Assembly: GCA_016198755.1 (NCBI GenBank)
Contig: JACQIB010000004.1
Location: forward strand, 170,913 to 234,912
DNA from: Candidatus Aenigmatarchaeota archaeon
Lineage (GTDB): Archaea > Aenigmatarchaeota > Aenigmatarchaeia > Aenigmatarchaeales > JACQIB01
Length of the DNA: 64,000 bases
Direction: 5' to 3'
Part shown: positions 21,750-48,914 of the stretch, in pieces
Layout of the letters: each line of letters opens with the position of its first letter
Position numbering within the stretch: the first letter of the stretch is position 1
The notes under the pieces: generated by a model
Databases searched by the model: none
Told to the model about the DNA's origin: nothing
What the model saw: only the letters and a program-made list of their open reading frames with translations
Made by a program: the position numbers and the translations under genes

Positions 21750-22832
21750 CTACCTGCGTTTCCAAGCCCTAGAGCCTTTAAGTCCGTGCGGAAATCCTGG
21801 GCGCGGGAAAGCTCTCCAAACACCCATTACACCATCCACTTTCCTTATCTCATTTCTGTGGAACCTGCTTACTTCCCTAGCTATTGCAGGTACATCACCA
21901 TTATACCAAGCATCCACAGCAGGTTGGAGCAAATATTTTGCTCTTCCAATTGAGCTTCTGCGTTGATGTGTAACGTTTGATAAAGAAACCCTGATAATTG
22001 GATTTTGTGATGCCATGATATTCGATCTTACTATCCAGCGATATGGTTTCACATTATCAACACGAATATGGTCAACATAACGCTGCATCATTCTGAGAGA
22101 AAAATGATCGAATATGTTGTATAGACTTCCCATTAAGTCCAGAAAAGTTCCGTTAGTGGAATATTCAACATTCTTTATATTGAGTCCTGTATTTAATCTC
22201 AAAAAATCTAATTCATCTTTTGCATCCATAGAAACGCTGGGGTGATAAATTGTTCTTTTTACGTCTTCACTGACAACTCCAACTTGTAACCTGTCGCTTG
22301 CATGTAAATCCCTGTTGCCAACCAACCCCAAGCTCCAAGCATAGGCAACAGCTTTTGTAAGATTGTCTATACTAAACTCTTTATCAGCAAAATCCTCTTC
22401 CATTGCTGGTAAAACATGGGTTTTTGCAGAACCTCCGCATGTATATTCTAACGGCCCACTAAAATCAACACCAGATGATTTACGTAATTCTATCTTGTAA
22501 ATCTCCGGATCACCGTTATGGAAATTGTTGCCTACAATTATTAGCGTACAGTGGAGATCTCTTTTTTTAGAGGCTTCTCCCCGCGCTATAGCCACAGCAG
22601 AAAAGTACGGTGACATCCCCTTACTGAAATATACCGGATTATTCAATAATTCTTGTATATAATCTACACTTCCAGAACTCACAACCAACGAACCGCCACA
22701 GTGATATAGTTTTTGTCTACCATTATACTTATGGTCAGAACCATTGGCCAAGTCATCTGCTACTACAACGGCATGTTTTGCCCTTGCATTTGTAGTTGGT
22801 ACAGTAAATGTAAATGCAGCTATATTAGTCAT
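21750..22832 (-). CDS. Proteasome-beta/HslV-like Ntn-hydrolase homolog (Thr2 directly after Met) with a roughly 170-aa C-terminal domain of unknown function
   Basis: MT-NIAAFTF; VVVADD..GS (Asp17-like); GRQKLYHCGG (Lys33-like); LIIVGNNFHNGDPEIYKI and CGGSAKT (GSG-loop-like). Paralog of 43736-44758. Confidence 0.5.
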   Translation of the reverse strand: MTNIAAFTFTVPTTNARAKHAVVVADDLANGSDHKYNGRQKLYHCGGSLVVSSGSVDYIQELLNNPVYFSKGMSPYFSAVAIARGEASKKRDLHCTLIIVGNNFHNGDPEIYKIELRKSSGVDFSGPLEYTCGGSAKTHVLPAMEEDFADKEFSIDNLTKAVAYAWSLGLVGNRDLHASDRLQVGVVSEDVKRTIYHPSVSMDAKDELDFLRLNTGLNIKNVEYSTNGTFLDLMGSLYNIFDHFSLRMMQRYVDHIRVDNVKPYRWIVRSNIMASQNPIIRVSLSNVTHQRRSSIGRAKYLLQPAVDAWYNGDVPAIAREVSRFHRNEIRKVDGVMGVWRAFPRPGFPHGLKGSRAWKRR

Positions 22833-22978
22833 ACAAAAAGCTAAGAATGAAACTTATTTAAACCCAACTTGCTCCCCTGTTAAAGAAAGTTTCAGCTGCT
22901 AAGTCTGCACTCATTTATATATGTTTCTAAAACGGAAACGATATGTTTACAAATAGGAAACACAATGTTTCTATTTTG

Positions 22979-41115: not shown

Positions 41116-43710
41116 ATGCCTGAGGTCTGGGAAATAACTGCTGGTGAGGTTTTAAAAGAGTTAAATGGTTCTGAAGCTGGGTTAAGAACAGAAGAGGCGC
41201 AGCGCAGGCTGAAAAAATTTGGGCCAAACACAATAGAAAGAAAGCATGGACATGGCCCGTTAACAATTTTTGCAGAGCAGTTCAAGAGCTTTTTGGTTTT
41301 GCTTTTGGTTTTTGCAGCTGTAATTTCAGTTTTTTTCGGGGAGTTTATTGACTCTGCTGCTATAGCTATAATATTAGTTATAAATGCATTGTTAGGATTC
41401 TGGCAGGAATATAAGTCTGAAAAAGCCATAGAAGCCATTAAGAAAATGGTTGTTGAAAGAGCTATTGTTCTGAGGGATGGGACTAAATTGGAAATTCCAG
41501 CTGAAGAGCTTGTGCTGGGAGATATTGTTTTTATAGAAGCTGGTGAAAGAATACCAGCAGATATAAGGATTTTGCAGAGTTTTGGATTAAGGCTGGATGA
41601 ATCTATACTTACAGGAGAGTCTGTTTCTGTTGGAAAAATTACAGAAAAAGTACAGGGAAAACAACTGGGAGACAGAAAAAATATGCTTTACATGGGAACT
41701 TTGGCTGTTGAAGGTACAGGAAAAGGTGTTGTTGTAAGCACAGGTTCAGGAACAGAAATGGGAAAAATAGCAAAACTTATAGAAGAACCTGAGGAACCTA
41801 CAAAATTCCAGAAAGATATGGATAAGTTCGGGAAGAGAGTAGGCTATATAATAGTGGTTATTGCACTGGCTGTTTTCCTTTTGGATATGCTGCGCGGTGC
41901 TGGTCCAGTTAACTCTGCACTCATTGCAATAACTTTGGCTGTGGCAGCTGTGCCCGAAGGTTTGCCTGCTGTTGTAACAATAACCCTTGCAATAGGAATC
42001 CAAAAAATGGCAAAAAGAAACGCTTTCGTGCGCAGATTATCCTCAGTGGAAAGTTTGGGTATGATAACTGTTATTTGCGCTGACAAGACAGGCACAATGA
42101 CTTCTAACCAAATGACAGTCAGGAAAATATGGGCTAAAGGAAAGGAAATTGATATTACTGGTCTGGGCTATACTCCTGAAGGGAAATTTTTAGACGGGAA
42201 GAAAGAAACAACACTTGGAAAGGAAGAACTTTTGCTTTTGCGCACTGGTATGCTCTGTAATAATGCTGCACTCAGGCAAAATAAAGGCTGGGAAATTATT
42301 GGTGACCCGACTGAAGGGGCATTAATTGTAGCTGCTGAAAAAGCAGGTGTTAATGTGAAAGTGGAGAGAATATATGAAATACCCTTTAGCTCTGAAAGGA
42401 AGATGATGAGTGTTGTTTCTAAAGAAAAAGACGGTTTGTATGTGTATACAAAGGGAGCGCCGGAAATTATTCTTAATCATTGTATAAGAGAAATCGGAGG
42501 GCAGATGACATCAAGTAAAAAATACAATATACAGGAAGAGTTCAGGAAAATGGCTGAATCCGGTTTAAGGGTGCTTGCTCTGGCTTACAAACCTTTTGAT
42601 GGGAATCTGAAACGAGCAGAAGAAGGCTTGGTTTTCATTGGATTAGTAGGTATGATTGATCCTCCAACAGAAGAAACAAAACATTCTGTAGCTGTCTGTA
42701 AGGAAGCTGGTATAAGGCCAATAATGATAACAGGAGATCATTTGCTTACAGCAAAAGCAATATCAAAAGAAGTTGGTATAGAAGGAGAAGCTGTTACAGG
42801 GGAGGATTTGGAAAAGACAGATGAGGAATTGACAAAAACTCTGGATAATATTTCTATATTCGCAAGGGTTTCCCCGCTACAGAAGCTAAAAATTATAGAA
42901 GCTCTGCATAAGCGCGGAGAACTGGTTTCAATGACAGGAGATGGTGTGAATGATGCACCGGCTCTGAAAAAGGCTGATGTTGGAGTTGCTATGGGCAGGA
43001 GAGGAAGCGATGCAGCCAGAGAAGCTTCAGATATAGTGCTTGCTGATGATAATTTTTCAACTATTGTTTATGCTGTGGAAGAGGGGAGGGGAATTTTTGA
43101 CAATATAAAGAAATTTGTACATTATCTTATAGGAGCGAATATTGCAGAAGTTCTGGCTGTCCTTGGTTCCTTAGTATTTTTCCTTCCACTGCCCTTTACT
43201 CCATTGCAGCTTTTATGGATAAATCTTACAACAGATGGTTTGCCTGCATTGGCGCTGGGCTTTGAGAAAAAACAGAAAGAAATAATGAAAGAAAAGCCAA
43301 AAGGAACTGAATCTGGTATATTGAAAGGGAGCTGGAGTTTCCTGTTTGCTGTAGCTGTTGTAGGTGCTGCAGCAGTTCTTTTTAGCCTGTTCCTCACACT
43401 TCCTCAGGGAATTGAAAAAGCCCGCACCGTGGCGTTCACAACAATGACGTTTTTTGAGTTGTTCCTCGTTTTCAGCATACACGCTGGAAAAGATGGGCTG
43501 TTAAAAGCAAACCCATTCTCAAACACTAAGCTTGTGCTGGCTGTATTAACTTCAGTTTTGCTTCAACTCTTAGTTATTTATTTTGTTCCTCTACAGACAC
43601 TTTTCGATACAGTTCCACTCGCTTTAGGCGATTGGCTAACTATTTTGCTCTTGTCTGCGACAGGTCTATTTGTTTCTCCAAAGCTTTTCCTCGAGAAAAA
43701 TCAGGTTTAA
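41116..43710 (+). CDS. P-type ATPase, type IIA (Ca2+/cation-transporting)
   Basis: DKTGT(M)T phosphorylation site; PEGLP in TM4; TGDGVNDAPALKKADVGVAMG hinge; TGES actuator motif. Confidence 0.9.
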   Translation: MPEVWEITAGEVLKELNGSEAGLRTEEAQRRLKKFGPNTIERKHGHGPLTIFAEQFKSFLVLLLVFAAVISVFFGEFIDSAAIAIILVINALLGFWQEYKSEKAIEAIKKMVVERAIVLRDGTKLEIPAEELVLGDIVFIEAGERIPADIRILQSFGLRLDESILTGESVSVGKITEKVQGKQLGDRKNMLYMGTLAVEGTGKGVVVSTGSGTEMGKIAKLIEEPEEPTKFQKDMDKFGKRVGYIIVVIALAVFLLDMLRGAGPVNSALIAITLAVAAVPEGLPAVVTITLAIGIQKMAKRNAFVRRLSSVESLGMITVICADKTGTMTSNQMTVRKIWAKGKEIDITGLGYTPEGKFLDGKKETTLGKEELLLLRTGMLCNNAALRQNKGWEIIGDPTEGALIVAAEKAGVNVKVERIYEIPFSSERKMMSVVSKEKDGLYVYTKGAPEIILNHCIREIGGQMTSSKKYNIQEEFRKMAESGLRVLALAYKPFDGNLKRAEEGLVFIGLVGMIDPPTEETKHSVAVCKEAGIRPIMITGDHLLTAKAISKEVGIEGEAVTGEDLEKTDEELTKTLDNISIFARVSPLQKLKIIEALHKRGELVSMTGDGVNDAPALKKADVGVAMGRRGSDAAREASDIVLADDNFSTIVYAVEEGRGIFDNIKKFVHYLIGANIAEVLAVLGSLVFFLPLPFTPLQLLWINLTTDGLPALALGFEKKQKEIMKEKPKGTESGILKGSWSFLFAVAVVGAAAVLFSLFLTLPQGIEKARTVAFTTMTFFELFLVFSIHAGKDGLLKANPFSNTKLVLAVLTSVLLQLLVIYFVPLQTLFDTVPLALGDWLTILLLSATGLFVSPKLFLEKNQV

Positions 43711-43714
43711 ATAG
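43707..43714 (+). promoter_or_regulatory. TATA-like element (tttaaata) 22 nt upstream of ATG 43736
   Basis: Consistent with a leaderless archaeal transcript. Confidence 0.3.
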
Positions 43715-43735
43715 ATTTCTTTTTACAACCTAATT

Positions 43736-44758
43736 ATGACTTCGATATCAGCTCTGGCTGGCAGTAGGCAAGTAGGTGGGATGCTCGGCAACACTGAAAG
43801 GTTTGTAGTCACGCAAACAGACAGCCAGGAAACCTTTGTAGATAACCATGGTCCATACCAGAAGGATGGGAACGCACTTAAAACAAGGTATTTGGGCAGA
43901 TGCCTTGTAATGGGCACTGGCCAGGGATATCTTATTGAACATGCTACAGATAATTCACACATATTAGAACAGGATACACCAAAAGAGGTTGCAGAAAAAC
44001 TTTTTGAAACGACAAACGGGAGAGAATATGGAACAAAGGGTCTGTCTTTTATAGTTGCCGGGAATGATGGGAAAACCTCAGAAATCTACCATGTACACGC
44101 TTCCCCAAAGAAAAGCAGGAGGGTATCAGGACCAGTTGGTTGGATATTTGACGGGTCTGGGGCAAGGTTAATGAGGCCTGCATTTGAGAGAGATATAAAA
44201 AATGGAGCGCTTAATCTAAATATGGGCACCCTTCAGATGAGCATGGCAGATCTTATCTCATATCAGTGGAATCTTGGGGACAATGCAGCAAATGATATAG
44301 GTGTGAACGATAGGTGGGAAGTTGGATTGGTTACTCCTGATAAAATACGGACTCTTATAAGCCCAACAGTTCCTTTATGGAGCACAGCTCTTGAGGAGTA
44401 TATACAGCTTAATTTAGGTGTGAACGTAACAGATTCGGAAAAGATGGGTCCTTTCTGGGGGGTAATGAACGACCTGCACCATGCGATAGAAATAGGATGC
44501 AGGAGACTGGGTCAGGCAGATTATAGGCTAAATCAAACCTTCGGTAATCAAAAATACAGACCCGCTGGTAATAGGGTAGACGAACTGATTAAAAGCAAGC
44601 TCTCTGAGAGGGATGAAGAACGCAGAAAACTGGGTGTTCTGGTTGATGCATGGTATTCTGGAGAGTTGGAAACTGTTGTAACTGCTCTTGATATGTTTAG
44701 CGATGAAAGGAAAACTATGAGAACGAAGGCAGTGGAAATTGCAAGACAAGCTGCTTAA
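43736..44758 (+). CDS. Proteasome-beta/HslV-like Ntn-hydrolase homolog (Thr2 after Met) with a roughly 150-aa C-terminal extension; paralog of 21750-22832
   Basis: MT-SISALAG; RFVVTQTDSQ; LKTRYLGRCLVMGTGQG; GLSFIVAGNDGKTSEIYHVHASP...VSGPVGWIFDGSGA. This is a strong match to the proteasome beta pattern GLIVAGWD..GPQLY.IDPSG....A.GSGS. Confidence 0.55.
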   Translation: MTSISALAGSRQVGGMLGNTERFVVTQTDSQETFVDNHGPYQKDGNALKTRYLGRCLVMGTGQGYLIEHATDNSHILEQDTPKEVAEKLFETTNGREYGTKGLSFIVAGNDGKTSEIYHVHASPKKSRRVSGPVGWIFDGSGARLMRPAFERDIKNGALNLNMGTLQMSMADLISYQWNLGDNAANDIGVNDRWEVGLVTPDKIRTLISPTVPLWSTALEEYIQLNLGVNVTDSEKMGPFWGVMNDLHHAIEIGCRRLGQADYRLNQTFGNQKYRPAGNRVDELIKSKLSERDEERRKLGVLVDAWYSGELETVVTALDMFSDERKTMRTKAVEIARQAA

Positions 44759-45219
44759 GCCTGTTTAACCTGCTCAGCTAACAAAGGCTTTTTTCCGCCG
44801 AGCAAAACAATTATTTTGTCTGCAAAATCCTTAACTTCACTCTCTCCGGCAGATGTTAGAACTTTCTCACTGTCTTTTGGTATTCCGGCAGAATTTAACA
44901 GGGAAACTGCAGTACCGCTGGCTGCAACAATTTTCCCTGCATCAAAAAAATCCTTTGCCATTTTAACGGCTGCAGGGTTATTTTCCAGTCCTATAAAACC
45001 CGGAGAACAGCCAATAAAAACAACACCATCATACTCGTTTACCCTAACCTCTTCCAGCCTCATGTTAGGTAGATAGCTTTCCCCTTTCAAAGAAACAAGA
45101 GAAGTCTTCTGCGGCCCGCAAACAAGCTGCAGAATACCTGCGGCATCTATAAGCTTGCGCAGCTCAAAGAACTCTGCATCCGGAAACCCGCGCTGGGGGG
45201 TAATTTCTATTATTAGCAT
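44755..45219 (-). CDS. DJ-1/PfpI-family (class I glutamine amidotransferase-like fold) protein
   Basis: 154 aa with a DJ-1-like central beta-sheet pattern (DGVVFIGCSPG...AKDFFDAGKIVAASGTAVSLL). Confidence 0.65.
   Translation of the reverse strand: MLIIEITPQRGFPDAEFFELRKLIDAAGILQLVCGPQKTSLVSLKGESYLPNMRLEEVRVNEYDGVVFIGCSPGFIGLENNPAAVKMAKDFFDAGKIVAASGTAVSLLNSAGIPKDSEKVLTSAGESEVKDFADKIIVLLGGKKPLLAEQVKQA
45127..45187. repeat. Copy 1 of a 61-bp perfect direct repeat (lies inside the 5' end of the DJ-1 gene)
   Basis: ctgcagaatacctgcggcatctataagcttgcgcagctcaaagaactctgcatccggaaac is identical to 48854-48914. Confidence 0.95.
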
Positions 45220-48853: not shown

Positions 48854-48914
48854 CTGCAGAATACCTGCGGCATCTATAAGCTTGCGCAGCTCAAAGAACT
48901 CTGCATCCGGAAAC
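48854..48914. repeat. Copy 2 of the 61-bp perfect direct repeat
   Basis: Exact duplicate of 45127-45187, located between the beta-helix protein gene and the LmbE-like gene. Confidence 0.95.

Follow-up and report, generated by a model that had tools for sequence, protein, structure and literature searches.

The gene and its putative promoter

The window, that is, the whole stretch of 64,000 nucleotides that was analysed, harbors a 340-aa open reading frame, verified by reading the sequence and hereafter called copy 2, which lies, as the earlier note had described, between the gene of a P-type ATPase and a convergent gene of the DJ-1/PfpI family (Table 1). Upstream alternative starts are ruled out by an in-frame TAG at 43712-43714, after which the stop-to-stop frame opens at 43715, and the N-terminus of the protein is therefore Met-Thr. 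The same protein sequence has been assembled independently, without any difference, from three sequencing runs.

The ATG is preceded by the TATA-like box TTTAAATA, which overlaps the TAA stop of the P-type ATPase gene (43708-43710), and no Shine-Dalgarno-like sequence is found between the box and the ATG, a condition consistent with a leaderless transcript. Of the excellent leaderless promoter claimed earlier, the box and its spacing are confirmed, while the special quality is not, the design being generic for this genome: TATA-like boxes stand 20-23 nt 5' of the ATG at about 10 of 50 genes of the window, and the TTTAAATA octamer shows no window-wide enrichment (12 observed vs 9.6 expected). 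The idea of an unusually good promoter for copy 2 was therefore rejected. The box of its paralog (copy 1) is identical and stands at the identical spacing. The reading frame is a genuine gene, independently transcribed to judge from the putative promoter, and its host is a DPANN archaeon (Candidatus Aenigmarchaeota).

Table 1. Coordinates of the genes, predicted domains and conserved positions discussed in the text (window numbering).
Feature	Position	Strand	Remarks
Paralog, copy 1 (360 aa; NCBI HY362_03185)	21750-22832	-	Architecture as in copy 2; Thr2, Asp, Lys, Gly, Ser retained
TTTAAATA box of copy 1	22855..22862	-	22 nt 5' of the copy 1 ATG; octamer and spacing as for copy 2
P-type ATPase	41116-43710		Upstream neighbour of copy 2; E1-E2_ATPase, E=1.9e-54
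TATA-like box TTTAAATA, preceded by GG	43706..43713	+	22 nt 5' of the copy 2 ATG; putative promoter element
Gene of the proteasome-beta-like Ntn hydrolase family, copy 2 (340 aa)	43736..44758	+	Identical to NCBI 'hypothetical protein HY362_03305 [Candidatus Aenigmarchaeota archaeon]'
N-terminal proteasome-like Ntn domain, residues 1 to ~210 (predicted)	43736..44365	+	Two-sheet sandwich; helix pairs H1/H2 (64-73, 82-92) and H3/H4 (143-155, 170-184) in the model
Thr2 codon (ACT), predicted N-terminal nucleophile after Met removal	43739..43741	+	Thr in 48/49 aligned N-termini; aligns to yeast beta1 Thr1
Asp29 codon, counterpart of proteasome Asp/Glu17	43820..43822	+	D 52/54, E 2/54; 'aDSq' aligns to beta1 'ADSR'
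Lys49 codon, counterpart of proteasome Lys33	43880..43882	+	K 54/54; 'qKL' aligns to beta1 'DKL'
Gly62 codon (GTG motif), counterpart of oxyanion-hole Gly47	43919..43921	+	G 55/55; profile alignment
Gly140-Ser141-Gly142 codons (FDGSGA), counterpart of Gly128-Ser129-Gly130	44153..44161	+	G 55/55, S 49/55, G 52/55; profile alignments
Conserved loop GVND-(K/R)-x-(Q/E)-x-G, residues 189-197 (GVNDRWEVG in copy 2)	44300..44326	+	V190 51/55, Q195 52/55
C-terminal helical domain, residues 208-340 (predicted)	44357..44755	+	One short and three long helices (234-274, 281-308, 311-339) in the model
DJ-1/PfpI gene	44755-45219	-	Convergent, downstream; E=2.8e-14; overlaps the end of copy 2 by 4 nt

Homology to proteasome subunits and conservation of the catalytic residues

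When used as a single query, copy 2 gives no significant match in Pfam (E<=1), NCBIfam (E<=10) or PDB sequences, and the same searches with copy 1 return nothing (E<=10 for Pfam). A word-indexed protein search retrieved only the query itself for either copy, and six proteins with the family profile. The proteasome beta consensus, which copy 2 was said to match "almost position for position", thus proved a correct lead, although it was no proof, as the single sequence has no significant match. The relationship emerges at the level of the family. In fact, the family profile finds the 20S proteasome beta subunits in the PDB, with yeast beta1 as the best match (E=2.8e-8); the alignment runs over profile positions 2-150 and residues 1-146 of mature beta1, and places the family Thr2 on the catalytic Thr1. 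The Pfam model Proteasome (PF00227) matches 8 of 55 members weakly, at best with 4e-4, and one member has been automatically named '20S proteasome alpha/beta subunit' by JGI.

The Thr/Asp/Lys/Gly/Ser set is near-invariant among the 55 family members and complete in both copies of the window. No propeptide is present, since the Thr directly follows the initiator Met in the family. The conserved loop at residues 189-197, part of a family stretch D-x-GVND-KLQ-x-G, follows helix H4 and precedes the strand after it, which is the topological place of the proteasome Asp166/Ser169 loop; the profile alignments, including that with a half-domain profile, end at helix H3/H4 and hence short of this loop. 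Copy 2 alone carries a glutamate at position 195, where 52 of 55 members have Gln.

Predicted structure

The full-length, single-chain model of copy 2 (pLDDT 94.2, pTM 0.92) shows an alpha-beta-beta-alpha sandwich of the proteasome type, with a beta-sheet core and flanking helix pairs. In a Foldseek search, the best 50 matches of the model were all 20S proteasome subunits (49 beta and one alpha) or HslV, and beta subunits, Anbu and HslV are its best structural neighbours, with an identity to the beta subunits of 11-20% over the structural alignments. According to the model, residues 1 to ~210 take the Ntn-hydrolase fold of the proteasome-beta/HslV/Anbu type. The claim of a proteasome-like Ntn hydrolase is therefore supported by three independent lines, namely the family profile, the conservation of the catalytic residues and the structural neighbours.

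The C-terminal domain, when modelled alone, is predicted with confidence (pLDDT 95.8, pTM 0.86), and a motif (D)AW-x-SG-(D/E) is conserved at the turn between its last two helices. Searches revealed no significant relative of this domain, either by sequence or by fold, the best fold match being to generic helical bundles (E=0.43); likewise, its long helices give only non-significant matches to coiled-coil or helical-bundle proteins, and alone they are predicted to fold as an intramolecular bundle. As modelled, residues 208-340 are a separate, autonomously folding helical bundle, specific to the family.

Distribution of the family and the paralog pair

An exhaustive phmmer search in a space of 1.84 billion proteins yielded 65 representatives at E<=1e-3 and 25 at E<=1e-10, mostly of 300-360 aa. 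The divergent homologs thus obtained, about 60 with 25-33% identity, all derive from metagenomes or metagenome-assembled genomes (MAGs). The same origin was found for all the 21 cluster sequences sampled (20 representatives plus P0067), none of which has a RefSeq accession. The few family members with a named source belong to Aenigmarchaeota and Woesearchaeota; moreover, an archaeal 16S rRNA is present within the window and the neighbours at the family loci are of archaeal type. A profile of ten sequences sharing GVNDKLQ gave two genome loci and four metagenome loci, a motif-based sampling that is taxonomically thin and biased to one clade. From its sequences, the family is sparse, highly divergent and so far seen only in uncultured archaea; a literature search for a DPANN-specific proteasome homolog found nothing relevant.

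The presence of a pair of paralogs, already proposed in the earlier note, was corroborated. The two genes are 21 kb apart (~22 kb start to start) and their products align by BLASTP over residues 104-321 with 24% identity (E=1e-17), while copy 1 matches the family HMM with E=1.9e-68. Of 32 conserved columns, copy 2 differs from the consensus in 5, the median value of the family, and copy 1 in 12, among them G142A and the GVN loop. On the basis of these comparisons, copy 2 is a typical family member and copy 1 a more divergent second copy. The family HMM finds one copy per locus except in the window, and the idea that family genes generally have a second paralog in tandem or nearby was rejected.

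Gene context

The neighbourhoods of the family genes vary between lineages, as seen from the comparison of the homolog loci. Neither an ATPase nor a DJ-1/PfpI gene was found beside the homologs at the ten loci (L004-L005, L007-L014) that stem from different organisms or samples, and a functional tie of copy 2 to either of its two neighbours was rejected, because neither adjoins any homolog examined. The DNA ligase and Orc1/Cdc6 genes flanking three loci of Woesearchaeota type were also rejected as functional partners and reflect lineage synteny only: Orc1/Cdc6 is a replication protein, and is not conserved at the other family loci. A viral or mobile origin received no support, the chromosomal contexts being of the housekeeping type and no relatives having been found in the viral contigs covered by a single scan, which relied on a motif and was biased to the GVNDKLQ clade. 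As regards possible partners, none of the 36 window ORFs scanned is a proteasome gene, including an alpha-like one, or an AAA+ unfoldase gene, and at none of the loci examined does the family gene adjoin a gene of an AAA+ unfoldase, whether HslU-like or not. As the earlier note had pointed out, the 5' part of the DJ-1/PfpI gene is duplicated 3.7 kb away, the duplication being a direct repeat of 61 nt without mismatch, at 45127-45187 and 48854-48914, with a spacing of 3727 nt.

Comparison with known proteasome-like families

The counterparts of Thr1, Asp17, Lys33, Gly47 and Ser129 of the 20S beta subunits (MEROPS T1, PF00227, archaeal PsmB) are found at the aligned positions of the family, although the spacing between Thr and Asp is 16 residues in the former and 27 in the latter, which corresponds to a longer first beta-hairpin. 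Furthermore, beta subunits are single-domain proteins of ~200 aa usually endowed with an N-terminal propeptide, a feature reported for most beta subunits and for HslV (PMC8665760), whereas copy 2 has 340 aa, no propeptide and an additional C-terminal domain. The curated PF00227 and NCBIfam models miss copy 2, and, while archaea universally possess canonical beta subunits (PMC8665760), the family is rare, lineage-restricted and without an alpha-type partner among the 36 window ORFs scanned. HslV resembles the family in having a propeptide-less Thr right after the Met, but it is a bacterial or organellar protein of ~175 aa devoid of a C-terminal domain, as opposed to the 340 aa of the archaeal copy 2, and it has HslU as its AAA+ partner, whereas the family loci have no linked AAA+ unfoldase.

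Anbu ('ancestral beta subunit') shares with the family both the propeptide-less Thr1 and a helical extension after the core; however, this bacterial protein carries a single extended helix, H5, in place of the three-helix bundle predicted for the archaeal family. The Anbu operon includes ATP-grasp and transglutaminase-like genes, neither of which occurs in the neighbour lists of the family loci examined. Helix H5 of Anbu is an extension after the core that forms coiled-coil contacts (PMC8665760). Anbu is not among the matches listed in the PDB sequence search with the family profile (the best 60 of 83 at E<=10).

The survey of Fuchs et al. (2021) described 22 uncharacterised proteasome-like families, among which the archaeal coiled-coil family, ACC, comes close to the present one. 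ACC is small, found only in archaea and very divergent (17 sequences at 90% identity, 15 at 70%), and the family described here is likewise archaeal and divergent. Comparing the two by description, ACC has a proteasome-like core, as the family does, followed by a predicted C-terminal coiled coil (PMC8665760), to which the C-terminal helices of the family may correspond, and both have no conserved gene context and no assigned function. On the other hand, ACC is reported from Euryarchaeota, Crenarchaeota and other archaea and has a RefSeq representative (WP_161937350.1), whereas the named members of the family are DPANN and none of the 21 sampled is in RefSeq; in addition, the ACC extension is a coiled-coil helix of the H5 type and stands outside the listed families with an additional C-terminal domain (PMC8665760), while the family extension is modelled as an intramolecular bundle. 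A search for a later characterisation of ACC in the literature found nothing relevant.

Proposed function and alternative explanations

Taken together, these data are best explained, with high though not full confidence, by a DPANN gene encoding a Thr1 Ntn hydrolase of the proteasome-beta type, devoid of a propeptide and joined to a family-specific helical bundle, whose mechanism would follow that of the proteasome. Most likely, copy 2 hydrolyses peptide bonds. Methionine aminopeptidase prefers small penultimate residues, and would remove Met1, leaving the Thr as the first residue. The hydroxyl of this Thr, with the Lys/Asp pair and the amino group of the Thr itself as activators, would then attack peptide (amide) bonds in the manner of the proteasome, the backbone NH of Gly62 providing the oxyanion hole. 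Assembly into an oligomer is plausible, because the single-chain model has the flanking helix pairs through which proteasome rings make their contacts. The C-terminal bundle would most likely serve for assembly or for the docking of a substrate or partner, and its about 130 residues could be incompatible with stacked rings. Since no dedicated AAA+ unfoldase or conserved partner gene occurs at the loci examined, copy 2 probably acts without a specialised regulator.

The catalytic residues of the family would fit the chemistry of a ligase or transpeptidase as well as that of a hydrolase, and the protein might be a sequence-specific protein ligase/transpeptidase like connectase (DUF2121; MJ0548), that is, a monomer which through a Thr1 acyl or amide intermediate ligates or swaps peptide segments on a single specific target, with the C-terminal domain conferring specificity. 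Connectase is indeed an archaeal proteasome homolog with Thr1, and has in common with the family a narrow archaeal distribution, an extra C-terminal part and the lack of an AAA+ unfoldase partner (PMC7980362, PMC8665760). However, in connectase H1/H2 are absent and a two-helix S3-S4 insertion covers the active site (PMC8665760), whereas the model of copy 2 has helices 64-73 and 82-92 at this place and no insertion; moreover, copy 2 has no match to Pfam DUF2121. For these reasons an activity of this kind appears unlikely.

Much less probable is a catalytically silent protein that has kept the fold for a structural or regulatory role or, in a variant, a pair in which one paralog is an alpha-like scaffold for the other. 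Two deeply diverged paralogs in one genome, the 12 off-consensus columns of copy 1 (with G142A and the GVN loop) and the E195 that replaces a near-invariant Gln in copy 2 would agree with such a role. Nevertheless, Thr2, Asp29, Lys49, Gly62 and Ser141 are all kept in copy 2 and in copy 1, the conservation of copy 2 equals the family median, and proteasome subunits without activity have typically lost Thr1 or bear N-terminal extensions (PMC8665760).

Finally, the best sequence and structure matches of the family, which are 20S beta subunits, and the JGI label of one member would suit a canonical 20S beta subunit made very divergent by fast DPANN genome evolution, yet this explanation is hardly tenable given the lack of PF00227 (E<=1) and NCBIfam (E<=10) matches of copy 2, the structural-alignment identity of only 11-20%, the missing propeptide, the additional domain of about 130 residues, the active-site residues kept in both window copies, neither of which looks like an alpha subunit, and the rarity of the family (65 representatives in 1.84 billion proteins) as compared with the universal archaeal beta subunits (PMC8665760).

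Significance of the family

The propeptide-less Thr1 hydrolase thus preferred adds one lineage to a proteasome-like superfamily that was already known as very diverse. Proteasome-like Ntn hydrolases range from a degradation machine of 28 subunits to the monomeric ligase connectase, which is now a tool of biotechnology. It is in the uncharacterised branches of the superfamily that new quaternary structures and new chemistries are to be expected (PMC8665760). From this perspective, a bolder and rather doubtful proposal can be made, namely that the family lies outside the 22 catalogued in 2021 (ACC being compared by description) as a DPANN-specific, propeptide-less Thr1 hydrolase fused to a new three-helix bundle, and that its two ancient paralogs with intact active-site residues, one conservative and the other strongly diverged, would together build a heteromeric particle that acts as a protease or ligase independently of an unfoldase. 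If this were true, the co-assembling pair would represent a new architecture and a second, independent occurrence of the kind of alpha/beta duplication from which the proteasome arose.

The family does not introduce a new principle; its value is that of a well-defined member, accessible to testing, in a superfamily that has been little explored. It is a clean candidate for study, having 340 aa, no propeptide processing, an intact predicted active site, a confident two-domain model and a C-terminal bundle without known relatives; its substrate and assembly state would be informative about protein turnover in ultra-small archaea and about the evolution of ring-forming proteases and their extensions. 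The reduced genomes of DPANN archaea keep few dispensable genes, and two copies of the family are kept in this Aenigmarchaeota genome.

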